Notes: generated by a model not told the origin, from the letters alone. DNA of 64,000 bases from Deltaproteobacteria bacterium SG8_13 (GCA_001303025.1 LJNK01000001.1:41-64040), one strand, 5' to 3'; shown: positions 3,406 through 28,846, numbered from the stretch's first letter. Numbers and translations are program-made.

Positions 3406-3511
3406 AAAAGAGACGGACCACATCACGCTGCCGTATACGGCTGACGACGAACTGGTCAGAGCGTGTGTCGACCAGGCCTTTTCTTCGAAGTAAAAGGAGA
3501 GCTTGCTGGCA

Positions 3512-4408: not shown

Positions 4409-4473
4409 CACCAGCGCAGCCGGCTTCCACTCATCGGCGTTCTACCGCAAAGCTCAATAATCGGGGGGGCACC

Positions 4474-8569: not shown

Positions 8570-8729
8570 TTTTCGAACATTTTCTACGGTAATCCTGAGC
8601 TCTCAATAGTTATTTTGAATCAGATTCGCAAGGGGTTGTTATCGAAATCACCATCATTTCGCGTATCCCTCCGACTGTCTCAAGCCCACCGTTTTTCCGG
8701 CATGTTACGCCATGGCAGATGGGGTTTTG

Positions 8730-9365
8730 TCAGTACAGAAATGGAATATATCTTTTGGTGACTTGGCAATATCGGGTGTAATCCTGCCCGTGAGATTCTA
8801 TAAGAAATTCTTCCTCCAGCCGGACTTGGAATTCAATTGATATGAAAAAAACCGTTATCCATAAACTGAATGACATGGTGGGGAAAATCATAAATGACCC
8901 GATGCATATTAACAGAAGGCCGCTGTAAGTGGGGTTCCGTATGTATGCATAAACACCGGTTGTTATCAGCGCTGTCTTGTTTTGCCGGTCAATGCCGACT
9001 CGCCACGAGTTGCCCATTTCCTGTTGAGCCCTCCAGCTTAAGAACAGTCCCAAAATACCAAGAACGAAACCAATGACGTTAACAGCATCATTGTCCAAAA
9101 AGTCCAATTGATGCAGGGCGAAATGATTTTCGACACCGGCGCTGTGAAATCCGATCAGCAAGGCAATCGTGATAGACATCACGCGTAACAAATTGGCAAA
9201 AAACTTTTGCGTTGGACGGTTATCGTCGTAGATGACCTCTGGATTATCCCCACTGTGTCTGACCATTATCCGTTTTTTGATCCGCCACAGGGCGAGATAA
9301 CCAAGGAACAATGATAAAACCATGACGCCTTCCATTTGTTCAAATCCCAAATCCGGTTCTTTCAA
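8730..9365 (-). CDS. Isoprenylcysteine carboxyl / phospholipid methyltransferase-family membrane protein
   Basis: Polytopic membrane protein. TTGVYAYIRNPTYSGLLL and the downstream EE-rich segment match the ICMT/PEMT family. It starts 14 nt downstream of the P-type ATPase stop on the same strand. The exact start (M1, M11 or M15) is uncertain. Confidence 0.7.
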   Translation of the reverse strand: MKEPDLGFEQMEGVMVLSLFLGYLALWRIKKRIMVRHSGDNPEVIYDDNRPTQKFFANLLRVMSITIALLIGFHSAGVENHFALHQLDFLDNDAVNVIGFVLGILGLFLSWRAQQEMGNSWRVGIDRQNKTALITTGVYAYIRNPTYSGLLLICIGSFMIFPTMSFSLWITVFFISIEFQVRLEEEFLIESHGQDYTRYCQVTKRYIPFLY

Positions 9366-9379
9366 AAAATGAGAAAAGG

Positions 9380-11524
9380 TTACGCTGGGTCAGGTAACTC
9401 GATTTTTCCGATTATTCGCGTTGAATTTGCAACTGCTGCCAAAGCAGTGCCCATATCTGCAAATACAGCTTCCCACATCGTTGCCATTCCCATTGCGCCG
9501 AAGAGTATGAAGATTCCTTTAACAACAAACGCCAAAATAATATTCTGCCAGACGATCCGGCGTGTGTGTTTGGCAATGGAAATCGACTCGGCCATTTTCA
9601 TGGGCGAATCGTTCATCAACACCACATCAGCCGTCTCCACTGCAACATCGCTTCCAAGCGCTCCCATGGCCACGCCGACATCCGCGCGGGCAAGGACCGG
9701 TGCATCGTTGATACCGTCACCGACAAAAGCGATTTTACCCTGACTTTGCCATCGTCTTGTTAGCTTTTCAAAAGTGCTGACCTTATCTTCCGGTAGAAGA
9801 TCAGCATAATAACTGTCGATTCCCAATACAGTCGCAACAGCCTCCGCAGCACAGGTATTATCGCCTGTCAACATCGCAACATGTTCTACACCCTGCTGCC
9901 TGAGCATCTTGATGGCTTTTTTCCCGTCCGATTTGATTTCATCCCCGATTGTGATGAAACCTGCGTATTTTTCATCCACCACGATGTGGGCGACAGTCGC
10001 GTCGAATTCACATTTTGGATGATCGATTGATTCTACGTGAAGAAGGCTGTCGTTTCCGACCATAACCGAATGAGAGCCATAGCGGGCCTTGACACCCTTC
10101 CCTGATATTTCCGTATGGTCAAAAACCATTGCAGGGTTCAGTTCCTGGCCATTTTTTTCATAAGCGTGGATAATGGAAGTGGCGATGGGATGATTTGACT
10201 GCAATTCTGCTGCAGCTGCAAACTCTAAAAGTTGATTTTTCGAAAATCCGTTCAGATTGACGATCTCCTGTACGTTGAATACACCTTTTGTCAGGGTTCC
10301 AGTTTTGTCGAATACCACCATTTTAACGGCTGCCAGTGCATCGATAAAGTTAGAGCCTTTTACCAGAATACCGTTGCGGGAGGCCTTGCCGATCCCACCG
10401 AAATAGCCCAGTGGAATGCTGACAACCAACGCACAAGGGCACGAAATGACCAGCAGCACCAGGGCCCGGTAGATCCAAGTTTGAAAAGATGCTCCGGTGA
10501 TAGCCGGCGGGATAAAGGCAACAGCCGCTGCGATCAGCACCACCGCAGGGGTATAATAGCGGGCAAATGTGGTTATGAAATTTTCAGTTTTTGCTTTTCG
10601 AGCAGTGGCATTTTCGACAAGATCCATCACCTTGGCAATGGAAGATTCGCCAAAAGGCCGCGTCACCCGAACAACCAGGGCGCCGCTTTGATTGATTTGC
10701 CCGGCCAATACCGAGTCCCCGGGTTTGACGGTGACAGGCACAAATTCGCCGGTTAGGGCAGAGGAATCCAGTTGAGAGTTTCCCGTAACGATATCTCCAT
10801 CCAAAGGAACCTTTTCGCCGGGTTTAACGAGTATCAGATCACCGACAACAACTGACTCCGGAGCCACTTCATGGTATCCGTTGGGAGTTTTTATAACCGC
10901 CTTGTCCGGCTTTGCCGCCAACAGTGCTCGTATCGAGCGGCGCGACCGGGACACGGCCACACCCTGGAGCAGTTCACCGACTTTGAAAAAAATCATGACC
11001 CCGACGGCCTCGGCATACGCATGAATTGCCAGCGCTCCCCCGGTGGCTATCACCATGAGTACATTTTCGTCGAATAACGTGCCTTTGCGAATCGTTTTGA
11101 ATGCTCCCAAAAGAACATTCCAACCCGCCATCAGATAGGCCGCAGCAACAATGGCGATTTCCAGAATCGGAAGGGGGTTTTTATGAAACCAGTCTTCAAA
11201 AAAAAGTTGCAGCATGAACAGGACCGAAGCAGCAGACAGGATTGAGAGCTCTCTTTTACGTTTGATACGTCCGGATGCTTCATCGCGCTTATGCCAAGCC
11301 CGATTCCCGGATTTTGGTTCCAGCTCAACCTCGGGTTCAATCCTGCGGACTTCATCCAAAACCCGCGGGATATCCTTGGCCTTCACATGCAGGGTCGAGG
11401 TGGCAAAGTCGAGAACGGCTTCATCTACGCCGGCTAAGGCGTTCAACCCGTTTTCAATTTTCGCCGCACAGGAGGCGCAATCGAGGTTTTTTACAGTAAA
11501 TATTTCTGTTTTTATCTCTTCCAT
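9380..11524 (-). CDS. Heavy-metal translocating P1B-type ATPase (Cd/Zn/Pb-type)
   Basis: Motifs present are an HMA domain with NLDCASCAAKIE, the CPC transmembrane motif (ISCPCALVVS), DKTGTLT, SNHPIA and GDGINDAP. I placed the start at the ATG at 11524 (MEEIKTEIFTV). The track ORF extends to 11650, which overlaps the arsR gene. Confidence 0.95.
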   Translation of the reverse strand: MEEIKTEIFTVKNLDCASCAAKIENGLNALAGVDEAVLDFATSTLHVKAKDIPRVLDEVRRIEPEVELEPKSGNRAWHKRDEASGRIKRKRELSILSAASVLFMLQLFFEDWFHKNPLPILEIAIVAAAYLMAGWNVLLGAFKTIRKGTLFDENVLMVIATGGALAIHAYAEAVGVMIFFKVGELLQGVAVSRSRRSIRALLAAKPDKAVIKTPNGYHEVAPESVVVGDLILVKPGEKVPLDGDIVTGNSQLDSSALTGEFVPVTVKPGDSVLAGQINQSGALVVRVTRPFGESSIAKVMDLVENATARKAKTENFITTFARYYTPAVVLIAAAVAFIPPAITGASFQTWIYRALVLLVISCPCALVVSIPLGYFGGIGKASRNGILVKGSNFIDALAAVKMVVFDKTGTLTKGVFNVQEIVNLNGFSKNQLLEFAAAAELQSNHPIATSIIHAYEKNGQELNPAMVFDHTEISGKGVKARYGSHSVMVGNDSLLHVESIDHPKCEFDATVAHIVVDEKYAGFITIGDEIKSDGKKAIKMLRQQGVEHVAMLTGDNTCAAEAVATVLGIDSYYADLLPEDKVSTFEKLTRRWQSQGKIAFVGDGINDAPVLARADVGVAMGALGSDVAVETADVVLMNDSPMKMAESISIAKHTRRIVWQNIILAFVVKGIFILFGAMGMATMWEAVFADMGTALAAVANSTRIIGKIELPDPA

Positions 11525-11546
11525 TCTCGGGATTCTATCGACTGCA

Positions 11547-11927
11547 TCATGACTCTTGCGTATGTTCCATTCCCAAATTAAGCAGCTTGCGGATGTGCTC
11601 ATCGTCCAAGCTGTAGTAAACGATTTTCCCGTCCCTTCTGGCTTTGACAACCCGTGACTGTTTTAAATTTTTTAGCTGATGGGAAACCGCCGGTTGTTTC
11701 ATCTGTAACAATGCGCACAGGTCACAAACGCACATTTCAGATTCGCTCAACGCCCACAGAATACCTAACCTGGTGCTGTCACCGAAAAGCTTAAACAGGT
11801 CAGCGAGTTCATACAAAGCAACCGCATCCGGCATATTCCGATCCACTGCACGGATCGTATCCTTATGGATTCCCTTGGTAATGCATGTTTCAACCGCATC
11901 GGTGGTGTTGCGTTGCCGGGCTGCCAT
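11547..11927 (-). CDS. ArsR/SmtB-family metal-sensing transcriptional repressor
   Basis: The sequence LFKLFGDSTRLGILWALSESEMCVCDLCALLQMKQPAVSHQLKNLKQSRVV is a canonical ArsR HTH with a CVC metal site. It lies 22 nt upstream of the ATPase on the same strand. Confidence 0.9.
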   Translation of the reverse strand: MAARQRNTTDAVETCITKGIHKDTIRAVDRNMPDAVALYELADLFKLFGDSTRLGILWALSESEMCVCDLCALLQMKQPAVSHQLKNLKQSRVVKARRDGKIVYYSLDDEHIRKLLNLGMEHTQES

Positions 11928-16543: not shown

Positions 16544-17173
16544 ATGGAAAAGCCCATCATCAACTACGAAACCTTGATTCGCATCACCAAGGCCATTTCC
16601 ATGATCCGGGATCCGGAGGAGATCTTGTTGATTACGGTTGAGGGCGTCACAAGTGCTCTGGGTATCAAGGGCTGTGCCGTGTTTTTGTTCAGCGCAAAAA
16701 CTGACGAACTGAAGCTTGCTTGCAGTTACGGCCTCAGCGACGAATATTTGAACAAGGGGCCGGTAAACGCCCTTCGTTCGATTGCATCGGCTCTTCAGGA
16801 CGGCCAACCGGTGGCCATTTCCGATGTTACGGACGACCCCCGGGTACAGTACCCCGAAGCAGCGCAAAAGGAGGGTGTCGCCTCGATCCTATCGGTGCCG
16901 ATGATTATCGGTGATAAGATTACCGGGTGCATGCGAGTCTATACTGCCGAGCGCTGGGAGTTCACTTTGAACGATGTGAATTTTGTCCAGGCCGTAGCGC
17001 AGGTGGTTGGAATGGCCCTGGAAATGTGCCGGGTCAACAAAGGGTTGAAAGACAGCATCGACATTCTCAAAACGATGCGGGATCCAAAGACGCTGAAGTC
17101 CCAAAAACGGACACCATATGAAGGCGTGCCGAAAAGTTTCGCCAGACAGGAGATCGCTGAAACCAGCGCTTGA
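16544..17173 (+). CDS. GAF domain-containing protein
   Basis: The ATG at 16544 is preceded by AAGGAGG. The core, from LIRITKAISMIRDPEEILLITVEG to SILSVPMIIGDKITGCMRVYT, has a GAF-like pattern. No output domain is present. Confidence 0.75.
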   Translation: MEKPIINYETLIRITKAISMIRDPEEILLITVEGVTSALGIKGCAVFLFSAKTDELKLACSYGLSDEYLNKGPVNALRSIASALQDGQPVAISDVTDDPRVQYPEAAQKEGVASILSVPMIIGDKITGCMRVYTAERWEFTLNDVNFVQAVAQVVGMALEMCRVNKGLKDSIDILKTMRDPKTLKSQKRTPYEGVPKSFARQEIAETSA

Positions 17174-17325
17174 GTGAAAATCTGCGCTGTCGGCCATTGG
17201 ATTGTTGCTGCACCGGTCCATGGTTGATTGACCCGTGCGATATACGGCAGGCCGGTTGAGAGATAGTGGAGATGGAGGCAGGTCGAAACTTGATGGCAGC
17301 TGCCTGCCGCCGGGTTCGGCCATGC

Positions 17326-18849
17326 TTACCCCCACACACTGGCAAGCCTGCGGATCAGGTTCATCATGTCGCTGTGCTCGTAGACCTCGGGCATCAACCC
17401 GATGGGATCGTTATAGAGCCGGTCGTCTTCAATGATGGCAGCCCAATCGAGTCCGTTCGGATCGACCACCCGGCCACCGGCATCTTTGACGCCGGCTTGC
17501 TGCATTATTTTTAAAAATTCGTATGCCACCAGTCCCTGGCCGATCACGGTTGGATGCACGCCGTCGAGGCCGAAGATTCCTCCCTGGACCAGCTGTCCGT
17601 TTCGCGCTGCATGGTAAAACTTGGTGTTCACCGGCGGGTCCATGTAAGCCAGGGCCGGCGGCAGGGTATAGGTGGGGTTGCCGTTGTTTCGTTTCCAGGC
17701 CATTTCGGAAAGCGCCCGGCTGACATCCACCAGATAATAACGCTGCCGGCCGCCGCGGCTTTTGTGTTCACTGTTGAGACGGTTGATGGTTTTGCGGATC
17801 GACTCGTTGTAGGCGTTGATGGCCAGGTCGATGTTGCGGGCCCTGTGCTGGGTGAGAAACGGCCACAGTCCGCTGTGGATGTCCTTTTCACGGAGAAAGA
17901 AATACGCGTAGTATTTGTAGTAAACCGATCGCTTCGTGCGGCCTTCCAGCGTGTCTTCGTAAACTGTTGTGGGGCCGAAGCCTTTGGCCAGCGGAGCGAT
18001 GGTCACATGGGGCACGTTGGCCACAAAAACCTTCCAGTCGACTTCTGCCGGGTTGTTGCGCATGGCCGCATCGACCCGCTTCGCAAGTTCGGCGTACTCC
18101 GCCGCAAAATGATCGGGGTGCCAGAAATTCCAGCCCTGTCTTTCCCGCTCGACATGGCTCAACTGGTGCGGCCATTTGCCATCGACCAGGGTTGTTTGAT
18201 TCGGCTGCAGACGCAGCACGGCGCCCAGCACATTGTTGCTGCCCAACCAGAGAATCAGGTTTTCCACCCCCGGCTCCTCGGAACCGCCTGCAAGCCCCTG
18301 CACATGGGCATCGAGCCATCCGAGCGGGCTCAGGGCGTCATAATCTGAAAGCTGTGCAGGGTTGAGCACGGTGTTGATGGCCCGGTAAAAAGGGGCGTTC
18401 GGCCACGAGAACCATTCGTCACCGTGCCCCCGGGTCTTTTTAATGAGTTGCTTGCAAAGGCCCGCATGGATGCCCCAGGCATCGGCGACCCGCAGGCCGA
18501 ATACGGCGATATTGTGGAAATAGGCGTCACCGCCGGGATGGGGGGCACCTACCTTGCCTTTGCCGCGTTCGTAATAGCGTTCGACCCTGTCCATGGCCTT
18601 GCGGATGGTGTTGACAGCCTGCAGCCACTCGATCGGGCCGAAGATATCGCTGCCGAATTTGTTTTCAAGACTGCGCAGGATCGTTTCGAGGTTGAGCGGG
18701 AAACCACCGTGGGGCCATTCCGCGGGGATTCGGTACGGGTCCGCCCCCAGCATATTGGCGATCAGGGTCGAATAACAGGCATCTGTGCGCGCTGCGGCAA
18801 AAGACATAAATCCCTGGGTGATGCTGTCTCCGATGGAGAATAGCTTCAT
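17326..18849 (-). CDS. Cytoplasmic SGNH/GDSL-family hydrolase (507 aa)
   Basis: Three SGNH blocks are present: Block I FSIGDSITQG, Block III WLGSNNVLG and Block V LDGVHPTVIG. There is no signal peptide. AAGGAG precedes the ATG. Confidence 0.8.
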   Translation of the reverse strand: MKLFSIGDSITQGFMSFAAARTDACYSTLIANMLGADPYRIPAEWPHGGFPLNLETILRSLENKFGSDIFGPIEWLQAVNTIRKAMDRVERYYERGKGKVGAPHPGGDAYFHNIAVFGLRVADAWGIHAGLCKQLIKKTRGHGDEWFSWPNAPFYRAINTVLNPAQLSDYDALSPLGWLDAHVQGLAGGSEEPGVENLILWLGSNNVLGAVLRLQPNQTTLVDGKWPHQLSHVERERQGWNFWHPDHFAAEYAELAKRVDAAMRNNPAEVDWKVFVANVPHVTIAPLAKGFGPTTVYEDTLEGRTKRSVYYKYYAYFFLREKDIHSGLWPFLTQHRARNIDLAINAYNESIRKTINRLNSEHKSRGGRQRYYLVDVSRALSEMAWKRNNGNPTYTLPPALAYMDPPVNTKFYHAARNGQLVQGGIFGLDGVHPTVIGQGLVAYEFLKIMQQAGVKDAGGRVVDPNGLDWAAIIEDDRLYNDPIGLMPEVYEHSDMMNLIRRLASVWG

Positions 18850-18954
18850 GGCGATCTCCTTTCAACCGACAGGATGCATCCGATCAAGAAACTCTTCTAC
18901 CCCATATTCGATTCGGCCGGGGCCCGTTGTGCCCGGTGTAATACCGCGGCGGGA

Positions 18955-19317
18955 TCAACCTGCACGATGATGGACCAGCATCGACAAAAGCAGCTGCAGC
19001 CCCCCGGTCCATGCGAAAAGAACCAGGTAATAAAACGATCCCAGCATGTCCCGTACGTCTCTATCGCTGCGCCCTTCCAAGCCTTCGGCGCCCGCGGATC
19101 TGCTGAACTGCACTTCGAAACTGCCCCGCGAGGCAAACGAACCGAGCATGGAGAGACAGCCGGTAAGGATGCAGGCCAAACCGCTCCAGCCCAGGGCCCG
19201 CACGAAATAAGCGACAGTGAGTTCGCCTCTGGCAAGCCCGACGGCTGCAATCATCGCAACGGTGCAAAGAACCAGCAGCGAACTTTTCAACTGAAATCGA
19301 AGGAATGAGCCCACCAT
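18955..19317 (-). CDS. Small predicted 3-TM membrane protein (120 aa), unknown function
   Basis: This is the internal ATG of track ORF 18955..19479, whose upstream part overlaps the SIR2-like gene. There are three hydrophobic stretches: LLVLCTVAMIAAVGLA, WSGLACILTGCLSMLGSF and FYYLVLFAWTGGLQLLLSMLV. The SD is weak, so the start and even the coding status are uncertain. Confidence 0.45.
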   Translation of the reverse strand: MVGSFLRFQLKSSLLVLCTVAMIAAVGLARGELTVAYFVRALGWSGLACILTGCLSMLGSFASRGSFEVQFSRSAGAEGLEGRSDRDVRDMLGSFYYLVLFAWTGGLQLLLSMLVHHRAG

Positions 19318-19384
19318 AACCGGTTTGCTTTCGGCGTGGCTGGATAAAAGTCCTGAACCTGGCGGGATGGCGATTCGGCTCTTT

Positions 19385-20536
19385 TTACGGTTCGGCCAGC
19401 AGCGGTCGTATGCTGTTTTCATCTGCCACCAGGTCCTCAAAAGAGCAGTGGATGAACTCCACATTGTTCGACAGGGCATGATACTGCTGTCGCAGGTTGG
19501 CCGAGCGTTTGGGATTCACCACAACAATGCGGGTGTTTTCCTTCAGGTGCTTTTTGAACAGGGCCTTGATGTGCACATCGGTATCCGAGAGGGAGTAGCC
19601 GATGAACACGATTTTGCGGCACATCCGTATCTCCCGGGAAGCTTCTCCAAGCAGCTGTGTTACGATCGGGTTATTCAGTGATTTGATGTACGAAGGCGGC
19701 ATGATCAGGGTTTGAAACTCGGTCCGGTCGATGGGGCAGTAATAGTCGTATTGTTTTTCGTCGGGAAACGTGTGGCCGATCAGTTTTCCGCGGTTCAGAT
19801 CGATTTTTCGGTCCCACGGGGTCAGCAGGGTGTGGTTGCAGCAGTTGCAGTATTTCCAGTTCAGGCTGCCGTGCAGCTTGATGATTTTTATGGGGACCGG
19901 GTCCTCTCCCGGCTGGACCGAAATCGGCTCGCGGGGGTTGACCCAGAAGTTGAAGTCCATGAGTTCGATGAGCTTTTCGTAGTTCATCAGGTGGATGCTG
20001 TAGTCGATGTAGCCGTATTTACGAAACAAAAAATCGAAAGCCTGCTCCAGAAGCGTGTCGTAGTTCAAGGTGATAATGGAGATGTTGCGGTTATAGCGGG
20101 CAACGGCATCCCAGAAAAGATGGTAGGTTTTGCTTCGCTTGTCCGTGCGCAGGTTTACGATATAGTGAATGATTTTGATGAAATTTTCCTTGATTTCCCG
20201 GATCGTTTCGTAGCTGTATTTCGAACTCAGGCTCTCGTTTTGCTGGATGAAATAGTCCAGAAATCCGAAAATAGCCTCCAGCTTGGGGAGATGGCCGGCA
20301 TCGGGATCGACGGAAAAGTTGTCGAAGATAAATTCCCTGACCTGCTGGCCGATGGCAGAAGAGCTGATTTCCGCTACTTGTTCGGAAATGATTATCGGCA
20401 GGATATCGTGCTGCAGGGGAACCCCGTCGGGGTGCGAGGAACCCGCGCCCAGCACAAACAGCACGTCGCGGACCGGCGCGTACCGCAGGTATTTTTCCGA
20501 TGATTGCGATGGCTGATTCGGGGCTGAGCTGCTCAT
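19385..20536 (-). CDS. SIR2_2-type (SIR2-like, NAD-utilising) domain protein, 383 aa, with no additional domain
   Basis: Motifs present are FVLGAGSS, ITLNYDTLLEQAF, KLHGSLNW and VFIGYSLSDTDV, plus a Cys cluster CNCCNH...YYCP. The ATG at 20536 overlaps the symporter stop (ATGA). The 254 N-terminal residues of track ORF 19385..21298 are an out-of-frame overlap with the symporter. Confidence 0.8.
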   Translation of the reverse strand: MSSSAPNQPSQSSEKYLRYAPVRDVLFVLGAGSSHPDGVPLQHDILPIIISEQVAEISSSAIGQQVREFIFDNFSVDPDAGHLPKLEAIFGFLDYFIQQNESLSSKYSYETIREIKENFIKIIHYIVNLRTDKRSKTYHLFWDAVARYNRNISIITLNYDTLLEQAFDFLFRKYGYIDYSIHLMNYEKLIELMDFNFWVNPREPISVQPGEDPVPIKIIKLHGSLNWKYCNCCNHTLLTPWDRKIDLNRGKLIGHTFPDEKQYDYYCPIDRTEFQTLIMPPSYIKSLNNPIVTQLLGEASREIRMCRKIVFIGYSLSDTDVHIKALFKKHLKENTRIVVVNPKRSANLRQQYHALSNNVEFIHCSFEDLVADENSIRPLLAEP

Positions 20537-22029
20537 ATGAACCGGTATTTCTGCAAGTTTTTTTCCAGGTAGCCGATAAATTCCTCCGCTTTTTCTGCCG
20601 GGGCCTGCGTGAAGAGGCTGATGGCGATGTAAAGCAGAATGCCGGCCGCCAGTCCCCACACACCGGGCCAGACGCCCAGCGGTTTGGTTCCGGTCAGCTG
20701 AAGGATCAGAACCACGATCGATCCGCCCAGCATGCTGCCAAGGGCGCCCGCCGCAGTGGCCCTTCTCCAGAAAAAGGCGCCGACGATGGCCGGCACGGCC
20801 ATCAGCAAGCCGGCTGAAGCGGCCGAGGCCAGCGGGGCGATCATAAACGCCAGCCCCGATTTTCCGGCCGCCCAATAGGCGAAGACGAAAAACACCACCG
20901 CCAGAATCGGGATGATCAGCTTGCCAAGCCGCAGTTCCGACGCCTCGGTCATACCGGCGGCGAAACCGGCCTTGAGAATATCTCGCGCGGCCATGGATGA
21001 AAGGCTCAGCAGAATGGAGTCGATGGTCGATATGGCCGCCGAGAGGATGCCGACCATCACGATGACCGCGATCAGCCTGGGTATGATCGGAAGGGCCAGC
21101 AGGGCCGGTGTGGCCAGGTCGGCCGATTGCAGATCGGGAATCAGCAAGCGGGCGCCAAAGCCCCAGAAAACAGACACCAGCGTGTAGAGAAATCCGAATA
21201 CGAGAAACCCGCCGATCATCTGCTTGAACGCCTTGACGGATTGGGGAACGAACAGGCGCTGGGTGACCTGGGGGTTGGAGATGGAGAAAAAGAGCCACGG
21301 CAGTGCCAGGCCCACGAAAACATTGAATTTAAACAAACCCGGGCCGGAGAGCAGCTCGGGGATGTCGCGGTTCATCCGGGCAAAGAATTCGGCAAATCCA
21401 CCGAAACCGCGGTACACCATGAAACACAGGGTGATGACCGAACTCACCAGCATGATTACCGCTTGCAGGGCATCGGTCCAGGCGACCGAACGCAAACCGG
21501 CCATGTTCGACCAGATCACCGCCAGTACGGTGGCAAGGATCATGGCCGCCACCAGGCCGACGCTCCCCTGGGAAACACCGGCAAGCAGATACCCGATGCC
21601 CATGAGCTGAATGGCAGCATAAGGAATCAGAAATACCAGGCAGAGCAGGGCAGAGATGATGCCGACGGCGCGGGACTGGTAGCGGTCGGCCAGAAGCTGG
21701 GCGTGGGTCAGGTAGTCGAATCTGCGGCCCACGAGCCAGAACCGCGGTCCGAAAAAAACGACCAGCGCCAGCCCGCACAGATAGGTGACCTCAAAACCGA
21801 AAGCCCCCACCCCGAGCTTGTAGGTGAGTCCGGCCAGCCCCACCATCATAAAGGCGCTGTAGGTCGTGGCGGCATAACTGAGCGCTGAAACGATCCCGCC
21901 CAGCTGGCGGTTGGCCAGGAAAAACTCGTTCATGCCGGCGCCCATTTGTTGACGGGCAACCGCCGCTACCGCTATGCCCAGTGCAGCGTATATCGCCAGA
22001 ATCATCCAGGGATAAAAGGTCTCACCCAA
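20533..22029 (-). CDS. Sodium:solute symporter (SSS) family transporter
   Basis: The 498-aa polytopic protein has a PutP/PanF-like N-terminal pattern (FFLANRQLGGIVSALSYAATTYSAFMMVG). The substrate cannot be determined from the sequence. Confidence 0.9.
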   Translation of the reverse strand: MGETFYPWMILAIYAALGIAVAAVARQQMGAGMNEFFLANRQLGGIVSALSYAATTYSAFMMVGLAGLTYKLGVGAFGFEVTYLCGLALVVFFGPRFWLVGRRFDYLTHAQLLADRYQSRAVGIISALLCLVFLIPYAAIQLMGIGYLLAGVSQGSVGLVAAMILATVLAVIWSNMAGLRSVAWTDALQAVIMLVSSVITLCFMVYRGFGGFAEFFARMNRDIPELLSGPGLFKFNVFVGLALPWLFFSISNPQVTQRLFVPQSVKAFKQMIGGFLVFGFLYTLVSVFWGFGARLLIPDLQSADLATPALLALPIIPRLIAVIVMVGILSAAISTIDSILLSLSSMAARDILKAGFAAGMTEASELRLGKLIIPILAVVFFVFAYWAAGKSGLAFMIAPLASAASAGLLMAVPAIVGAFFWRRATAAGALGSMLGGSIVVLILQLTGTKPLGVWPGVWGLAAGILLYIAISLFTQAPAEKAEEFIGYLEKNLQKYRFI

Positions 22030-22041
22030 GGCAACATCCTC

Positions 22042-22245
22042 TCATCCTTCATCTGCGGTGGGGGCGTCCCGCCACCGGAGGAAAATAACGAACATGCTGC
22101 CGATGGCCAGCAGCGTCCAGCAGGTCCAGAAGAGAAAACTGCCTTTTGCGTGCGGGATGCCCGCGAGCAGGAAAAACGGAAACAGCACGTCGATCAGCAG
22201 TAGAAAACCAAACCAGATCAACCAGAAACGTAGGGTATTGCTCAT
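22042..22245 (-). CDS. Small 2-TM protein, DUF3311-like accessory subunit of SSS transporters
   Basis: The ATG at 22245 gives MSNTLRFWLIWFGFLLLIDVLFPFFLL...WTLLAIGSMFVIFLRW. The product is 67 aa and ends 12 nt before the symporter start, which is the typical arrangement. The family call is tentative. Confidence 0.6.
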   Translation of the reverse strand: MSNTLRFWLIWFGFLLLIDVLFPFFLLAGIPHAKGSFLFWTCWTLLAIGSMFVIFLRWRDAPTADEG

Positions 22246-22348
22246 GTCAGCCGTTCTTTCCAAATCCGAGATGATTGCCCGTCCACCGGATCGCATGCCG
22301 CCGGTGGGCCAGGGCTTTTTTCGATGCAAGGCGCACGTGCGGCTGCAG

Positions 22349-22906
22349 CTATTGCTTCAAGGGAGCCGCCATCACCAGCGTCCAATAGGTCCCGTAGCGC
22401 GACGCAGTGTTCTGCGCGCATGCAGCGCCGATTTCGGTAAAGGCCGGTTCCATGATGTTGGCACAGTGGCCGGGGCTTTTTAGCCAACCGGATACCACCG
22501 ATTCGCAGGAGTCGAGACCGCCGGCCACGTTTTCCCCAACGGCCCGCCAGGTGTATCCGGCCCGACCGACCCGTTTTTCCACCGTCGACTTTCCCGTACC
22601 CTTATGACCCAGACGGTTGCGGTCGGCCATATCGATTGAATGACTGCGGGCTGCCGTGGCCAGCGCGGGATTCCATCGGACTGCTGCGGCGGGTCGAAAC
22701 CGCTTTGCTCCACACCTGCCTCCCGAGGCACGGGCGCGATTGATCAGTTTTACCATCTGTTTTTCCATACGGGCTGCAGATGTACACTGGGCGTACGGTC
22801 TTTTCGGTACCACCACCGTTTTCTTTTCCGGCGGGGCGCAACCGCCCGCGAGAAAAATGACAAGGGCTGTGGTCACAATTGCCAATCGGTGTCTGCGGGG
22901 GCTCAT
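22349..22906 (-). CDS. CAP/SCP-domain (YkwD-like) lipoprotein
   Basis: The ATG at 22906 gives MSPRRHRLAIVTTALVIFLAGGC, a signal peptide with a lipobox. CAP motifs are HSIDMADRNRLGH, GENVAGG and WLKSPGHCANIM. Its start overlaps the Rrf2 stop (ATGA). Confidence 0.75.
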   Translation of the reverse strand: MSPRRHRLAIVTTALVIFLAGGCAPPEKKTVVVPKRPYAQCTSAARMEKQMVKLINRARASGGRCGAKRFRPAAAVRWNPALATAARSHSIDMADRNRLGHKGTGKSTVEKRVGRAGYTWRAVGENVAGGLDSCESVVSGWLKSPGHCANIMEPAFTEIGAACAQNTASRYGTYWTLVMAAPLKQ

Positions 22907-23331
22907 TTGGCGTCTTCCCGCATCTCGCACTCCATCTTCATCAGATCGGAAATGGTGATCTGCGAGAGCCTCCGGTACATCGCCTTCGTGGCCTCGTGCC
23001 ATACAAAGCGCGTTGCGCAATCATCGGATCGCTGGCAGCTGTCCGGATCGACGGTGCAAGCTGTTAATTCAATTCCTCCTTCAAGCACGGAAACGATGTC
23101 GCCGACCGAAATTTCTTCGGGCGATCTTGCCAGGTAGTGGCCTCCTTTGGGTCCCCGGACACTCATTACATAGTCGGCCTGCTTGAGCGGTCGCACCAAA
23201 TGCTCCAGGTATTTCATGGAGATGTTCTGCCGTCGGGCGATGTCGCTGAGCCGGATCGGTCCCTGGTCGTAATGCTGGGCCATGTCCAGCACCAACCGGG
23301 TTCCGTATCTGCTGCGAGTCGAAAGTTTCAT
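22903..23331 (-). CDS. Rrf2-family transcriptional regulator (IscR-like; Cys-containing C-terminal half)
   Basis: MKLSTRSRYGTRLVLDMAQHYDQGPIRLSDIARRQNISMKYLEHLVRPLKQADYV is a canonical Rrf2 wHTH. Cysteines in TACTVDPDSCQRSDDC are possible cluster ligands. Confidence 0.9.
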   Translation of the reverse strand: MKLSTRSRYGTRLVLDMAQHYDQGPIRLSDIARRQNISMKYLEHLVRPLKQADYVMSVRGPKGGHYLARSPEEISVGDIVSVLEGGIELTACTVDPDSCQRSDDCATRFVWHEATKAMYRRLSQITISDLMKMECEMREDAK

Positions 23332-23452
23332 GGCATTTCTCCGCTATCGGTTGAATCCTGTTGCCGGGCCGTGTTTTGTGTCGGGGCCTCTTGATCGATA
23401 TGCGAATCACGCGAATCCGTCAAGTCCCGTCGGTCGACTGCCCGTCTGATCA

Positions 23453-24529
23453 CTACACGTAGGATATCGGGGCCATCTGCTTTTGGCGGCGGATGGCCTC
23501 CAGCAGGCCGACCGTTCCGGTCATCATGTTGTCTCCGAAAGGAGCGCCAAAGGAGATCGGCAACTGCGTATCCTCCAAGAGTCGTCGTTTGGGTCCCGTG
23601 GCGATGATGGCTTCGGTGGACCCGAATCCGAAGGCCCTGCGAATGTAAGCTCCGTGCCCCCCTTCGGCCAGGACCTGCTCATGGCTCAGCTTGCCGTCTG
23701 TCAGTTCCCGCAGCAGGGATTCGAGCCGGCTCAAAGAGATGTCTCTGGTGTGGTACTCGAAAAAGCCGCAGATCTCGCCTTTTTCAAGGGCCGCGCATAC
23801 CGTGTGGGAAGTTGCGATATCAAGCACCACGATGCGCTCGCAACGGCGGGCCTGCATGTCGAGAGAGGCCCCGAGGATCGCCGCCATCCCGCTGTCCATT
23901 ACAAAAACTTCGGAGGTCGGCAAGCGCTCTGCGCTTCGCGCAATTGTCGTCAGCCGATTCATGGTGGCTGGCACCTGGCTGCTGGAAAACAAAACGGCGT
24001 GAGGGTAGGGCGCATCGTCCAGCTTGTCGCGAAACAACCGGTGGCGGTAGTCAAGGTGGGAGACCCCTGCCGGCGGAACCCCATGGTCCTGGGCGCAGAC
24101 ACCGACCACGTCGAATGCGAAGGCGACGCCAAAACTTTTCACCATCTGCTCGATGCGTCCGGCATCGATGTCCGTGACCACCAGTGATGAGTAACCGGGC
24201 TGCTGCAGTCGGTTTTCCGCCTCGGCGTCCGATACAATCTCGATGTTCCAGCTGCGCACGACATCCGGGTTGTGGTGCAGGGTGGCAGCCGATGAAGCCG
24301 ACATGATCACTGCGGACTGTCGGGCCCTTTCCCGCAGGGCATCGGTGACGGGGCCGCCGCCCATTTCGCCGCCGGTGACCACCAGGTTGCCGGGGAGAGC
24401 ATCGATTTTTTCCGCCACCGTTCTCACCGGGGACCGGACAACGGCCTTGTAGTGCAGGTCTTGCGCGCTGTCGTGGTAGAGTACATCCAGCGTTCCGGCA
24501 CCGATGTCGAGCAATAGAATTCGGCTCAT
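23453..24529 (-). CDS. ASKHA (actin-like ATPase) superfamily protein, DUF1786-like
   Basis: The N-terminal ILLLDIGAGTLDVLY resembles a phosphate-1 motif, and there is a second VVLDIATSHT block. Length and pattern resemble DUF1786. The call is tentative. Confidence 0.55.
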   Translation of the reverse strand: MSRILLLDIGAGTLDVLYHDSAQDLHYKAVVRSPVRTVAEKIDALPGNLVVTGGEMGGGPVTDALRERARQSAVIMSASSAATLHHNPDVVRSWNIEIVSDAEAENRLQQPGYSSLVVTDIDAGRIEQMVKSFGVAFAFDVVGVCAQDHGVPPAGVSHLDYRHRLFRDKLDDAPYPHAVLFSSSQVPATMNRLTTIARSAERLPTSEVFVMDSGMAAILGASLDMQARRCERIVVLDIATSHTVCAALEKGEICGFFEYHTRDISLSRLESLLRELTDGKLSHEQVLAEGGHGAYIRRAFGFGSTEAIIATGPKRRLLEDTQLPISFGAPFGDNMMTGTVGLLEAIRRQKQMAPISYV

Positions 24530-24604
24530 TGCGGCATTTCTCCCACTGTAATCATTCCGAAGATCGACCCGGGTGGCCCGCGTCTTTGTGAAGTGCCGGC
24601 AGGC

Positions 24605-26182
24605 TTACACCGCTACCGCTTCCCCCTGTTGGGGTACGACAGCTGAAATTCCCTCTTTGCGGAGCGTGTCCGCAAATGCTTGCGCCTGCTCTTTTTCACC
24701 GTGAACCACGGCGACCTTATTGATTCGTACGTTCGATCCTTTGACAAACCGGACCAGTTCGCTGCGGTCGCCATGGGCGCTGAACCCACCGATGCTGACC
24801 ACGTGCGCTTTGAGCGGGTACTCCTTGTTTAGAAATTTCAGGTACGGTGCGGCGCCGCTGCGGCCGTTCTTCTCGTATTCAATGCCCTTTTCGAGAATCC
24901 GTCTGCCCAGGGTGTTTTCGGCCATGAAACCGACGATCAGGATGGTGTTGCGGGGGTCGTGGATTCGATGACGCAAGTGGTGCAGAACACGGCCGGCTTC
25001 ACACATTCCCGAGGCGGCCAGGACGATATGCGGTTTTTTGCTGCGATTCAGGGCGATGGATTCCTCCACCGAACTCACGAACCGGAGCTTGTCAAAGGCA
25101 AACGGGTTTTTGCCGCTTTGAAGAAACGTCTCCTGCGTATCGGTATCGTAGACTTCCGGGTGTTCGCCAAACACGTGGGTAAGATTGCTGGCCAGCGGAC
25201 TGTCCACGTAAACCGGCAATTTGGGGATCTGTCTGTCGTCATACAGCTCATGCAGCACGTAGAGCAGCTCCTGCGTGCGCCCGAATGCAAAGGACGGAAT
25301 CAGCACACATCCACCGCGCTGGACCGCGTCGATGAGCACCTCGCGCAGACGCGGCTTGAGATCGACCACCGGCTCGTGGTCGCGGTTTCCGTATGTGCTT
25401 TCCATGATCAGCAGGTCCACTTGTCGATGTGCTTCTTCGAATTCAAGGGTCGGGTCGCGCAGGATCGGTTTGTCGAAACGACCGATATCTCCGGTGTAAC
25501 AAACCGTTTTCATTTGTCCGTTTTCCCGAACCCGCAGCATGCTTACAGCCGAGCCGAGGATGTGACCGGCATCGTACAGGCACCCTTCAGCGTCCCGTCC
25601 GACCGTTACCGTGTATCGGTATGGGAAACCGTCAAAATGCGTCAATGCCTGCTGGGCATCGGCGGTATTGTATAGCGGCTCGATGCGGTGGAGCTGCAGC
25701 CGATCGATCAGATTATCAATGGTATCGGTGTCGAGGTGATGGCGGTTCTTTTTCAGCAGCTTTTTAACCGCCGTCATTTGCCCCCCTCCACCGAATTTTT
25801 TCCGTGCCGAGGGTTTCATCTGGGAAAAAGTGGACCGCAGCGTCTTGTAGTTCAGATAGGCCGCGTCCGACTCCTGGATATTTGCCGAATCGAGCAGCAG
25901 ATATTTGCAGGCGGCTGCCGTGGGACGGGTGCAAAATACCCGGCCGGCAAAGCCGTTTTTCACCAACAGGGGGATGCGACCTGAATGATCGATGTGGGCG
26001 TGAGAGAGGATAACGTTGGTGACGATTTTCGGATCGAAGGGCAGGATCCGATTCTTGGCTTCACTCTCCCTGCGGCGTCCCTGGAACATGCCGCAATCGA
26101 ATAGAATCCGGTCAGTGTCGGTGGTCAGCAGGTGCATTGAACCGGTTACCTCCCGGGCGGCACCGTAGAAAGTTACATGCAT
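24605..26182 (-). CDS. MBL-fold beta-CASP ribonuclease (RNase J / CPSF-like)
   Basis: Supporting stretches are MHVTFYGAAREVTGS, ILSHAHIDHSGRIPLL (HxHxDH) and a beta-CASP region ending in the C-terminal GFSAHGD. Confidence 0.85.
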   Translation of the reverse strand: MHVTFYGAAREVTGSMHLLTTDTDRILFDCGMFQGRRRESEAKNRILPFDPKIVTNVILSHAHIDHSGRIPLLVKNGFAGRVFCTRPTAAACKYLLLDSANIQESDAAYLNYKTLRSTFSQMKPSARKKFGGGGQMTAVKKLLKKNRHHLDTDTIDNLIDRLQLHRIEPLYNTADAQQALTHFDGFPYRYTVTVGRDAEGCLYDAGHILGSAVSMLRVRENGQMKTVCYTGDIGRFDKPILRDPTLEFEEAHRQVDLLIMESTYGNRDHEPVVDLKPRLREVLIDAVQRGGCVLIPSFAFGRTQELLYVLHELYDDRQIPKLPVYVDSPLASNLTHVFGEHPEVYDTDTQETFLQSGKNPFAFDKLRFVSSVEESIALNRSKKPHIVLAASGMCEAGRVLHHLRHRIHDPRNTILIVGFMAENTLGRRILEKGIEYEKNGRSGAAPYLKFLNKEYPLKAHVVSIGGFSAHGDRSELVRFVKGSNVRINKVAVVHGEKEQAQAFADTLRKEGISAVVPQQGEAVAV

Positions 26183-26404
26183 ATGACACCATCCTCAAAG
26201 AAGAGCGCGCGGGCAGTGCCGGCTGGGTGAGCAGCGAGGGCCGAGCCGCAGATACCACGAAATATCCGGACGTAATCGACGACCGTCGGCGGGCCGGGTC
26301 AACGGGTTGGGATTATACACGGAATACGCCGGCTTGCAAAGGCGGCTTGATTGTCCTGACAAAATTCAGTAAAATAATAGTCTCGAATAAAAGGAGATAT
26401 TGCC

Positions 26405-28846
26405 ATGGCCAACCCAGCCCCCTCTTCGGGTGCCCGAAATGAAAGCAAGGATCTTTCCGATCTGCGCATCACGATAAATATTATTCGCGACTTTTTGACC
26501 CTGGTCGAATTGCTCGATACCCTGCCGAACATGTCAAAGGTCCCCTATGACGTAACCCGCAGTCTGTACCAGTCCGTATCGAAGGGACGCGACATTCACA
26601 TGCTCGGAAGAGAACTGGAGGGATTCTTCGGCCCGCCAAAGAAAGAACCCGGCAAACCATTGCCGAAAATGCTCCGATTTCATCCTACCATCAAATACCT
26701 GGACGGCATTCGCGACGAACAAGCGCTGTACATCAAAAAAACCAAAAATGGTTTTTTCTATGGCGCCCTCTGGCCCTGGTTCAAGACACCGGAAAACATC
26801 ACGGTTCACCTCGGCTACATCGGCAACAAGATGTCCGGCAAGGACTTTGACAAGCTCAACAAAACGGTCAAAACCCGGCTGCTGAATGAAAAAATATTCG
26901 ACGAGCTGGCTGCCGGCGAAGGAGGGCGGATTCACGGAATCAGCCTGGCGTCCTTTCTGCAGATGGGTCAACTCGAAAAGGTCTCGTGTTCACTGGAGGT
27001 GAAAACCGCCGGTGCAGGAGGGTACCTGCATCTTTATAACGGGGAGCTGTGCGATGCCAAAACCGGCAACTTGAGCGGAAAGTCGGCCGCCTACGAAGTG
27101 ATCAGCTGGGACAACACGGAAATCGATCTCAGGGATCTTGGCGGGAAAAAGAAAAATGAGATCAATCAGCCGCTGGTGCAGGTGCTCAGCGAGGCGCTCA
27201 GGCTCCGGAAGAGCAAGAAGAACAAACCGGGCGTTTCGGCTGCGGCTGCCGGTCTCGCAGCGCGCGGGCCCACAGACGATCGCTACAAGGCGCTGCGTGA
27301 CGCCCAGGCGTCGAAGGACAGGCGCCTGATGCCGGTCATCCTCGGCACCCTGCTGGCCCTGATGATCATCGGTGCCGGGGCCGTGTTCGGCATGCGTTTT
27401 GTGAAAACCTGGCAACTGAAGAAAGAGTATCAGGCGGTTCTCACCCAGGTTGCGGGGATCCAGGACCCTGAAGAAATAGCGGCGCTGCTGCAGGAATTCG
27501 CCGATTCCCATGAATACACAGACCAGGCGGATGATGCGATGACCCGGATTCGGAAAATCTATGCAGGCGTAGAGGACCACGAATACCGGCTGGTTCTGGA
27601 GCGGGTGGCCCGGCTTCCCATCGACGAAAAATACGAAGAGACCGCTTCTGAAATTTACGACCAGTACCTGATGGAGTATCCGGATAGCGAACACTACAAC
27701 GACATCCAGGTCAAGCTTTCCGAGATCCCCATTGTGATCGACGATGTCGATTTCCAGAAGGTTCAGAAGGTCGCCGAACAAGATTATGACAACCGCATTG
27801 CGGCTTACCTCGATTATATGGTGAAGCATCCCAACGGACGGCACAAATCGAAGGTCGAATCCTTTGTAGCGGAGATGAGCGAGGAGTATTACGATCACCT
27901 GCTAACAGAAGTTCCGCGTTGCGACAGAGAAGAGAATTGGGACCGCTGCCTGTTGCTGTGTGACAATTTTCTGGGGTACTTTCGAAACCATCACCGTGCT
28001 TATGAAATCGAAGCGTTGAAAGGGGTTTTGATCGACAAGAAAGAGGTGGCGGCCCTGATGCAGACCGTCAAAGAACTGGGGGACCGGTTCGAACTGGCAA
28101 AAATGGTGTTGACCGAGTATTTGGAAGAAAACCCGTACTCCTCTCAGGCGGAGAAGGTCAAAGAACAACTGACCAAGATCCGGCGCAACCTTGCCATAAC
28201 CCACGAGTGGGAGCAGGCGCTGGCATACAGCCAGGACAACCGATACCCCTATCGCGACCGGATTGGGTATCTGACCCGTTATATCCAGCAGAATCCCTCC
28301 GGCCGATACACCGATGAAGCAAAGCAGGTGCTGGTTCAGCTGCAGCAGGAGAACCGAACCCGATACAACGAGTTGATCAAGGCTGAACAGGCCCAGCAGG
28401 CTGAGCAGCTGGCGGAGGAAAAAGCGCGGCTCCAGAAGGTAAGAAACAGGCTGGTCGCTCAAATCCGGCAGGCCGGCGGTCGGTTTGCCGCCAACGACAA
28501 TGACACCTTCATCGACACCCGAACCAATCTGACATGGTGTCTGCTCGACTCGAGCGTGATGTTGAATCAATGCCAGAATTTCAACGACGCCCAGCAGTAC
28601 GTCAAAAATCTCAACACCGGCGGGTACACGGACTGGCGTCTGCCTTACGGGAACGAGCTGGCCGGTCTCTACAAGAATGAGCCGTATTTTCCCGGTGACA
28701 GTTCTCCCTGGTACTGGACCGCCGAAGTGTTTGTCAAAGGCTATCGCAAACAGGTGATGGCAGTCACGTCCGTCCGGGAACTGGGGCACAACCGCCTGAA
28801 GAAAAACCTGAATCAGTGCGGTGCGGTCCGCGCGGTGCGTCCCTAA
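26405..28846 (+). CDS. Bitopic 813-aa protein: cytoplasmic DUF4388/PATAN-like domain, 1 TM, long helical-repeat region, C-terminal DUF1566 (Lcl-C-like) domain
   Basis: AAGGAG precedes the ATG. The DUF4388-like part is GISLASFLQMGQLEKVSCSLEVKTAGAGGYLHLYNGELCDA...AYEVISW. The TM segment is LMPVILGTLLALMIIGAGAVFGM. The DUF1566-like part is TNLTWCLLDS...GGYTDWRLPYGNELAGLY...WYWTAE. Confidence 0.6.
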   Translation: MANPAPSSGARNESKDLSDLRITINIIRDFLTLVELLDTLPNMSKVPYDVTRSLYQSVSKGRDIHMLGRELEGFFGPPKKEPGKPLPKMLRFHPTIKYLDGIRDEQALYIKKTKNGFFYGALWPWFKTPENITVHLGYIGNKMSGKDFDKLNKTVKTRLLNEKIFDELAAGEGGRIHGISLASFLQMGQLEKVSCSLEVKTAGAGGYLHLYNGELCDAKTGNLSGKSAAYEVISWDNTEIDLRDLGGKKKNEINQPLVQVLSEALRLRKSKKNKPGVSAAAAGLAARGPTDDRYKALRDAQASKDRRLMPVILGTLLALMIIGAGAVFGMRFVKTWQLKKEYQAVLTQVAGIQDPEEIAALLQEFADSHEYTDQADDAMTRIRKIYAGVEDHEYRLVLERVARLPIDEKYEETASEIYDQYLMEYPDSEHYNDIQVKLSEIPIVIDDVDFQKVQKVAEQDYDNRIAAYLDYMVKHPNGRHKSKVESFVAEMSEEYYDHLLTEVPRCDREENWDRCLLLCDNFLGYFRNHHRAYEIEALKGVLIDKKEVAALMQTVKELGDRFELAKMVLTEYLEENPYSSQAEKVKEQLTKIRRNLAITHEWEQALAYSQDNRYPYRDRIGYLTRYIQQNPSGRYTDEAKQVLVQLQQENRTRYNELIKAEQAQQAEQLAEEKARLQKVRNRLVAQIRQAGGRFAANDNDTFIDTRTNLTWCLLDSSVMLNQCQNFNDAQQYVKNLNTGGYTDWRLPYGNELAGLYKNEPYFPGDSSPWYWTAEVFVKGYRKQVMAVTSVRELGHNRLKKNLNQCGAVRAVRP

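Follow-up and report, generated by a model that had tools for sequence, protein, structure and literature searches.

The ThsA, DSR1/DSR2 and SPARSA effectors share a SIR2_2 catalytic core with an Asn and a His residue, and have or pair with SLOG or TIR domains, large C-terminal domains or a prokaryotic Argonaute (pAgo). The SIR2 superfamily is currently split into zinc-containing, non-immune sirtuins and zinc-less SIR2_2 proteins, the 'sirims', which are taken to be largely immune NADases (PMC12700824; 10.1101/2024.09.18.613514). SIR2_2 proteins are described as being without a zinc module, and that module has been linked to the shift from NADase to deacetylase activity (PMC12700824). Here we examine a SIR2-like gene (19385..20536, minus strand) within a 64-kb stretch of DNA (the window) from Deltaproteobacteria bacterium SG8_13. 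Its product of 383 amino acids (aa) matches a hypothetical protein of that organism at 100% identity. To judge from sequence comparison, this gene is a stand-alone, strongly conserved one; a symporter, a membrane protein and an esterase adjoin it only in particular lineages and do not form one system with it. Throughout, loci labeled L followed by a number are the genomic or metagenomic stretches that we retrieved, and the Freo contig is a further relative.

A Pfam scan of the 383-aa open reading frame (ORF) identified SIR2_2 (PF13289) as the sole domain past its threshold, at 40.2 bits against a cut-off of 24.5. The canonical SIR2 model (PF02146) reached 17.4 against a cut-off of 24, the NCBIfam equivalog for CobB, an NAD-dependent protein deacylase, reached 12.9 against 221, and AbiH (PF14253) gave a partial match over residues 96-339 whose score of 26.3 falls below its cut-off of 30.9. 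By hidden Markov model (HMM) the protein is thus of the SIR2_2 type and no true sirtuin. The original prediction, which was made from the sequence alone, had described the gene as sensor-less. Consistent with that description, the ORF contains no second domain detectable with Pfam, and Pfam and PADLOC analysis of the neighbors in the window revealed no TIR, HerA, Argonaute, STAND or SLOG partner near the gene. The motifs and the Cys cluster that had been picked out by eye were likewise all located in the ORF. These are the GAGSS glycine-rich loop of the Rossmann fold (residues 30-34; 20435..20449, minus strand), the catalytic NYD motif, part of TLNYD (residues 158-160; 20057..20065, minus strand), KLHGS (residues 220-224), GYSLSD (residues 313-318), and Cys230, Cys232, Cys233 and Cys267; the catalytic His222, which lies in KLHGSLNW, is encoded by the CAC codon at 19871..19873 (minus strand).

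We assessed the conservation of these residues in two alignments, one of 16 orthologues from two phyla (A1) and one of the wider superfamily, with members of 23-63% identity (A2). Residues G30, G32, E87, N158, Y159, D160, H222, G223 and S224 are invariant in A2, and the NYD and HGS triplets are invariant in A1 as well; A31 and S34 are conserved in at least 90% of the A2 sequences. N158, D160 and H222 are retained even among those members that are only 23-46% identical. The ORF looks to encode a catalytically intact, autonomous NAD+-consuming enzyme of the SIR2_2, or sirim, branch.

Eight residues past His222 begins a predicted zinc-ribbon insertion, C230-x-C232-C233 ... C267-P-x-D270 (19727..19849, minus strand). 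C230, C233 and C267 are kept in at least 90% of the superfamily sequences in A2, and position 270 is either Asp or Cys, such that many superfamily members have the arrangement CxxC...CxxC. In an AlphaFold2 (AF2) model of the protein, which has a mean predicted local distance difference test score (pLDDT) of 78 and a predicted template modeling score (pTM) of 0.79, residues 227-264 form five short strands, the confidence in this region being medium (pLDDT 60-76). The nearest solved sirim, PsSIR2 (PDB 8w9l), has ~14 residues between HGSLNW and PPS, as against ~55 here, which amounts to an insertion of ~40 residues. The spacing of eight from the catalytic His to the first Cys is that of canonical sirtuins (H116/C124 in Sir2Tm, H135/C143 in Hst2, H187/C195 in SIRT2, and also SIRT1), and an HMMER register match to Sir2-Af1 (profile positions 197-216 to chain positions 110-129) fits that spacing, albeit at a non-significant E of ~2. 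Because the ribbon segment by itself found no match among PDB sequences, its positional equivalence to the sirtuin zinc modules rests on motif spacing and residue numbering. The family is, at the level of sequence, an exception to the zinc-less description of SIR2_2 proteins; the lack of a zinc module and a neighborhood enriched in defense genes are typical traits of SIR2_2 and no part of its formal definition.

Structural comparison with Foldseek gave the SIR2 subunit of SIR2-HerA as the best match in the PDB (E 7e-11, TM-score about 0.5 (0.54), 16-18% identity), followed by SPARSA, SIRT2, Hst2, KomC, CobB and DSR2. The SIR2 of the anti-phage system SIR2-HerA (Nezha; PDB 8sub, 8uae, 8j4u and 8w9l) resembles the window protein in its length of ~380 aa, in a profile match to 8w9l at an E of 1e-12, and in the motifs TxNYD, KLHGS(L/I)NW and (P/H)PS that both contain. 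The two differ, however, in that sequence identity is no more than 16-18%, the window protein carries the ~40-residue ribbon insertion, and its gene has a conserved place in the core genome, outside any defense island, with no HerA beside it; a HerA ATPase was found neither among the window neighbors nor as a conserved neighbor cluster in 80 loci. Of the partners and additional domains associated with ThsA, DSR1/DSR2 and SPARSA, too, none is present at the window gene. Like the canonical sirtuins (CobB, Sir2Tm/Sir2Af, Hst2 and SIRT2), the window protein combines the Asn/Asp/His catalytic set with a Cys-rich ribbon on the C-terminal side of the catalytic His and with housekeeping-like conservation, but it fails the PF02146 and CobB models, does not have the GIPxFR and FGE motifs, contains a larger helical insertion and matches these proteins in Foldseek with a TM-score of just 0.35-0.45. 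With AbiH, a lactococcal single-gene abortive-infection protein, it has in common a stand-alone existence, a size of ~350 aa and a SIR2-like fold, whereas its score lies below the AbiH gathering cut-off and its distribution is neither patchy nor that of a mobile gene. A precedent for the domestication of a sirim is provided by vertebrate FAM118A/B, which are also stand-alone SIR2_2 proteins, vertically conserved and outside defense islands (PMC12700824). FAM118B, on the other hand, is without a zinc module and forms filaments (PMC12700824), and its similarity to the window protein is insignificant (E 0.85 to 9r3e).

To place the gene in its wider distribution, we drew on several searches. A protein search returned 685 relatives; the best 120 of these 685 are all 370-400 aa long, with an identity of 61% or more. 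When each species was represented by a single genome, relatives turned up in at least 207 genomes, and we analyzed 80 loci, with flanks of up to 10 kb, in which the SIR2-like proteins are 58-87% identical to that of the window; to compare neighbors, the proteins of the window were searched with tblastn against 89 SIR2 loci. The orthologous group so defined comprises proteins of ~370-385 aa, with 58-87% identity, and is present in Desulfobacterota and Ignavibacteriota, in no fewer than 207 species-level genomes; 107 alignment columns are invariant across 16 sequences of the two phyla.

The gene occupies a fixed place in each of these phyla. In ten loci from Desulfobacterota the order is beta-CASP, DUF1786, (Rrf2), SIR2, Lon. 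A sister clade of the window lineage (L002 and L011-L018; 67-71% identity) has SIR2 between (Rrf2)/DUF1786/beta-CASP and Lon, with Lon directly adjoining SIR2 in five loci and one gene between them in the rest; in L002 and L011-L014 SIR2 is immediately preceded by the Rrf2 gene, which in L082 lies ~210 nucleotides (nt) upstream, and Rrf2 is by this comparison the ancestral upstream neighbor. The window differs from this backbone in having genes for a CAP-domain protein, a 67-aa subunit and a symporter between Rrf2 and SIR2, and genes for a 120-aa ORF, an SGNH-like hydrolase, a GAF protein and RidA between SIR2 and Lon. Ignavibacteriota have instead the string mnmE-mnmG-rsmG-SIR2-padR. Of 64 loci from that phylum, 61 have room upstream of SIR2, and 50 carry rsmG there in the same orientation, 38 of them as the adjacent gene, with gaps of -26 to 229 nt; mnmG and mnmE usually precede rsmG; a padR gene follows SIR2 by 7-222 nt in 38 (60 of the 64 have room downstream). 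In a neighbor-joining tree the sequences of each phylum group together, and all Ignavibacteriota fall in one clade nested among the Desulfobacterota, consistent with a single ancient transfer and vertical descent thereafter. The ratio of nonsynonymous to synonymous substitution rates (dN/dS), calculated against L005, is 0.10 for SIR2, as compared to 0.077 for the symporter, 0.058 for Lon, 0.106 for DUF1786, 0.15 for the SGNH gene and 0.28 for the 120-aa ORF. The SIR2-like gene is inherited in a conserved chromosome backbone, under strong purifying selection and without a conserved partner.

Beyond the orthologous group, a profile search of 1.84 billion representative sequences returned 79 clusters at E <= 1e-30 and 1270 at E <= 1e-10. 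Among the matches listed, nearly all members of this superfamily are single-domain proteins of 340-400 aa. Seven clusters, of 467-520 aa, have an extra N-terminal domain of ~110 aa, which in all but one of them gives a sub-threshold RAMA match (E 3e-7 to 2e-2). A sister clade of the SIR2 family, in which this N-terminal domain has sub-threshold similarity to RAMA/DUF4357, contains P0121, P0130, P0132, P0137, P0141 and P0148, and the two members that we aligned are 34-40% identical. RAMA-like domains are typical of restriction-modification contexts. One such RAMA-like SIR2 gene (L156:8001-9449) lies between ssb and a gene for a Cho-like nuclease (RNase_T + GIY-YIG/UvrC). A stand-alone homologue of 46% identity (L160:905-2038; Vibrio sp. 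HDW18, NZ_CP049914.1) sits in a cassette array resembling a chromosomal integron, together with catB9, VOC, GNAT and RelE/ParE genes and many short hypothetical genes, ~140 nt apart. We also note a 46%-identical homologue, P0122, that was found on 1.2-kb contigs only, which give no genomic context.

We favor, with reasonable though not strong confidence, the explanation that the protein is an NAD+-cleaving enzyme whose target, most likely a conserved cellular macromolecule, is engaged through the ribbon subdomain. NAD+ would be cleaved at the nicotinamide-ribosyl bond while the macromolecule is held by the predicted zinc-ribbon subdomain, and ADP-ribose would probably be transferred to that macromolecule or an acyl group removed from it. 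Target-directed NAD+ chemistry of this kind on a conserved macromolecule suggests that the role is one of housekeeping or regulation, and not a depletion of NAD+ set off by phage. More tentatively, and with doubt prevailing, we suggest that the orthologous group and the wider superfamily of ~350-400 aa might be an evolutionary intermediate between the immune sirims and the canonical sirtuins, combining a SIR2_2 core with a sirtuin ribbon in a fixed housekeeping gene whose product would modify a conserved macromolecule with NAD+. In that case the target could be a nucleic acid, given the RAMA-like, DNA-associated domain fused in the RAMA-bearing sister clade, the SSB and Cho neighbors of one such gene, and the place of SIR2 within the mnmE-mnmG-rsmG RNA-modification operon of Ignavibacteriota.

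Several observations weigh against target-directed NAD+ chemistry. The HMM class and the nearest solved structures are those of phage-defense NADases, and the acyl-lysine motifs FGE and GIPxFR of canonical sirtuins are those that the protein does not have. The outgroups, namely the Vibrio cassette and the RAMA-like fusions, look defense-like or mobile. In addition, zinc binding by the ribbon is deduced from the sequence and from a region of the model that is of medium confidence, and the status of the gene as a core gene is deduced from 80 loci.

Some of these same observations favor a single-gene abortive-infection or defense NADase, akin to AbiH or to a sensor-less sirim, an explanation that is possible and, on balance, rather unlikely. 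Such a protein would sense infection itself, perhaps via the zinc ribbon or through oligomerization, and would then deplete NAD+. Membership in SIR2_2, best structural matches to the SIR2-HerA, SPARSA and DSR2 NADases, and the sub-threshold AbiH score (26.3 bits) all agree with this proposal, as do weak SIR2 and Aga_SIR2 matches in PADLOC, the single-ORF Vibrio cassette and the RAMA-fused relatives. We also count in its favor that neighborhoods of the sirim clade are 12-fold enriched in defense genes (10.1101/2024.09.18.613514). Since such relatives can act alone and be mobile, a single-gene defense role is possible for the superfamily, though this orthologous group behaves otherwise. Its genes lie at fixed places among housekeeping genes in two phyla, and its proteins are 58-87% identical over their whole length and evolve at a dN/dS of 0.10. 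Nor do they recur with defense genes: when we ran PADLOC on 147 proteins, taken from the three genes either side of SIR2 at 29 diverse loci, no defense family recurred, and the matches were singletons and two BrxL matches; because BrxL is Lon-like, these two are most likely Lon proteases. We rejected membership in a PADLOC defense family, as the window protein and ten superfamily members gave only weak SIR2 matches of at most 62 bits, the Aga_SIR2 match of the window protein being 46 bits; like the AbiH score, these reflect family-level similarity only. A phage search with the SIR2-like protein gave no matches, and 2.9 million viral contigs in IMG/VR yielded three distant relatives of 25-30% identity, so that the group is absent from phages and nearly so from viral contigs. 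A phage or plasmid origin of the gene was rejected in the absence of phage matches, the plasmid and viral relatives being only distant.

The original prediction had also raised the possibility of an NAD-dependent enzyme tied to solute uptake, and had noted that the start of the SIR2-like gene overlaps the stop of a sodium:solute symporter (SSS) gene. The symporter (498 aa; 20533..22029, minus strand; Pfam SSF, 144 bits) is preceded by a gene for a 67-aa small subunit with two hydrophobic, presumably membrane-spanning segments (22042..22245, minus strand), a homologue of which is found directly upstream of nearly every symporter orthologue. The predicted overlap is indeed present at 20533..20536: read on the minus strand, the 3' end of the symporter gene is ...TAC CGG TTC ATA TGA, and the ATG of SIR2 lies within the same ATGA (20536-20533). 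Exactly the same junction is seen in the close relatives L005, L010 and L090, whereas the two genes are 65 nt apart in L007 and ~15 nt apart in L096. The symporter is directly upstream of SIR2 in three related lineages, namely the window clade, L007-L009, where the 67-aa subunit and symporter accompany SIR2 in a different context, and L096, where the SIR2 is 68% identical.

Outside these three lineages the linkage is not kept. The symporter is absent from ~70 of the 80 SIR2 loci, and in the sister clade (L002, L011-L018) none of the symporter, the 67-aa subunit, the 120-aa ORF or the SGNH gene is found. In the converse comparison, we collected 66 metagenomic loci with a relative of the symporter, of which ~35 had enough downstream sequence; the 67-aa subunit was almost always present, and SIR2 came next only in L090, which belongs to the window clade, and in L096, leaving ~33 of the 35 unlinked. 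Neither symporter linkage nor linkage to the 120-aa membrane protein thus extends beyond, respectively, the three related lineages and that of the window. Moreover, because the sister clade has SIR2 directly flanked by Rrf2 and Lon, the ATGA overlap with the symporter indicates local co-expression only. The start of SIR2 overlaps or abuts the stop of rsmG in several Ignavibacteriota (L053, L059, L063, L081 and L088; gaps of -26 to 0 nt), which shows that the overlap partners vary by lineage. A second ATGA joins the Rrf2 and CAP genes at 22906-22903, and such junctions therefore appear to be routine operon packing in this genome and no special signal.

A link between symporter and SIR2 through nicotinamide and NAD+ metabolism in the window lineage would nevertheless be compatible with target-directed NAD+ chemistry, although we think it unlikely. 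According to this proposal, the substrate of the subunit and symporter would be nicotinamide or niacin, and SIR2, being coupled to the symporter in translation, would release or exchange nicotinamide. Nicotinamide is both a product and an inhibitor of Sir2 enzymes, and in yeast Pnc1 relieves the inhibition. In seven metagenomic loci of three sequence types (L108-L114; 83-92% mutual identity), an orthologue 68-70% identical to the window symporter is followed after 4 nt by a gene for a protein of 212-215 aa that passes the NCBIfam equivalog cut-off for the nicotinamidase/pyrazinamidase PncA (175.8 against 174), as with the symporter at L114:6001-7494 and PncA at L114:7499-8143. This linkage makes the 67-aa subunit and symporter a candidate sodium-coupled transporter, which may carry nicotinamide or niacin; recurrence of the trio of subunit, symporter and SIR2 in the different context of L007-L009 and in L096, and conservation of the ATGA overlap in the window clade, are further points in favor of coupling. 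On the other side, most SIR2 and symporter orthologues are unlinked, no PncA gene occurs near any SIR2 locus examined, and other symporter orthologues precede genes for PutA, a PMT_2 glycosyltransferase, a PAS histidine kinase or ferritin. In L097 the orthologue (74% identity; 200-1693) is followed 260 nt on by a PutA-type proline dehydrogenase/aldehyde dehydrogenase gene (1953-5567), a competing hint that the substrate is proline. The best NCBIfam similarities of the symporter are to PanF (150, below its cut-off of 328) and PutP (106, below 515), and a search of the literature available to us found no SSS-family transporter of nicotinamide or niacin linked to pncA. Furthermore, the three symporter lineages linked to SIR2 are related, and the linkage may go back to a single historical event. 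The suggested tie to solute uptake is weakly supported, by the trio in three related lineages and by the hint from symporter and PncA.

Downstream of SIR2, and on the same strand, the two further ORFs of the original prediction are present as described. The 120-aa ORF (18955..19317, minus strand) has strong hydrophobic segments at residues 8-33 and 97-116 and a weaker one between them, and matches no Pfam family. The 507-aa SGNH-like ORF (17326..18849, minus strand) has the sequence blocks GDS7, GSNN203 and DGVH429 and no hydrophobic, signal-like N-terminus, as expected of a cytoplasmic protein, its scores against the Pfam GDSL models being sub-threshold (PF00657, 17.9 against 23.6; PF13472, 13.6 against 32.9). 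The genes are co-directional, with gaps of 67 nt from SIR2 to the 120-aa ORF and 105 nt from there to the SGNH gene, and the order is the same in L005 and L010. Only in this clade (83-87% SIR2 identity) do the two genes lie beside SIR2; gene order in the Freo contig (84% SIR2 identity) agrees, except that a 111-aa gene takes the place of the 120-aa ORF. Methylomonas, Archangium, Nostoc and Leptolyngbya have homologues of the SGNH protein (45-53% identity), and in the two contexts that we examined, those of Methylomonas and Archangium, the gene stands alone by AlaDH/SDH or Tol-Pal genes; by this comparison the protein is a member of an independent, widely spread family. That SIR2, a membrane effector and an acyl-ADP-ribose esterase form one module is accordingly most improbable: despite the co-directional genes and a PADLOC '2TM effector' match of the 120-aa ORF (non-significant, E 0.004), tblastn on 89 SIR2 loci shows that both genes are absent from beside SIR2 outside relatives at least 83% identical, the neighborhoods are of the housekeeping kind, a strong Shine-Dalgarno sequence (AAGGAG) precedes the SGNH gene itself, and the SGNH homologues in unrelated neighborhoods give no support to an esterase role.

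Base composition had been adduced, too, the SIR2-like gene having appeared by eye to be poorer in GC than the symporter gene. The difference is real (52.0% as against 60.1%), but the argument drawn from it fails at the level of codon usage, since GC at third codon positions (GC3) is 0.719 for SIR2, 0.760 for the symporter and 0.672 +/- 0.074 on average for the window. Codon positions 1 and 2 account for the deficit (GC at second positions, 0.326), and the protein is rich in Ile, Lys, Asn, Tyr and Phe, indicating that the deficit reflects amino-acid composition and not foreign codon usage. With a GC3 that is normal for the window, recent horizontal acquisition, as read from the low GC, was rejected.

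The SIR2-like gene is one of seven co-directional genes on the minus strand of the window, running from 23331 down to 17326, and a promoter and terminator scan of 16800-23600 gave nothing informative. First in the string is the gene for the Rrf2-family regulator (22903..23331, minus strand; Pfam Rrf2, 135.7 bits), whose product carries a C-x6-C-x5-C motif (ACTVDPDSCQRSDDC) reminiscent of Fe-S-binding Rrf2 regulators. Next comes the lineage-specific gene for a CAP/SCP-domain lipoprotein (22349..22906, minus strand; Pfam CAP, 73.6 bits), with a hydrophobic N-terminus and an LAGGC lipobox; the 120-aa membrane protein further down the string is lineage-specific as well. Upstream of Rrf2, at 23453-28846, are genes for DUF1786 (358 aa), a beta-CASP/RMMBL nuclease (525 aa) and an 813-aa DUF4388/Lcl_C protein, a block whose synteny is kept in every relative, in the window clade and the sister clade alike. 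Other genes nearby in the window are hut genes, an IucA-like gene, genes for ZIP, PEMT and a P-type ATPase, and Lon. A ZIP zinc transporter, a PEMT/ICMT-like methyltransferase and a heavy-metal P-type ATPase are encoded on the minus strand at 7742-11650, with a GC3 of 0.50-0.52 as against the window mean of 0.67. In L002 the hut genes and Lon are neighbors, whereas in the window this block and the IucA-like gene separate them; the metal-homeostasis block is possibly an acquired insert.

Taken together, our comparisons suggest that what is new here is a predicted zinc-ribbon-bearing sirim of the core genome. A large conserved clade of SIR2_2 proteins with a ribbon at the sirtuin position, core-gene-like in two phyla, does not fit the present division of the superfamily. 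A practical consequence is that SIR2_2 matches and ATGA overlaps should not be read as defense modules before the conservation of the neighborhood has been checked. The interest of the family would be greater still should its members prove to be non-immune transferases or deacylases, or an intermediate between sirims and sirtuins. Its cultured carriers, Melioribacter roseus, Stygiobacter electus, Rosettibacter primus and strain NaphS2, open a way to the role of a non-defense sirim and to the origin of the zinc module.

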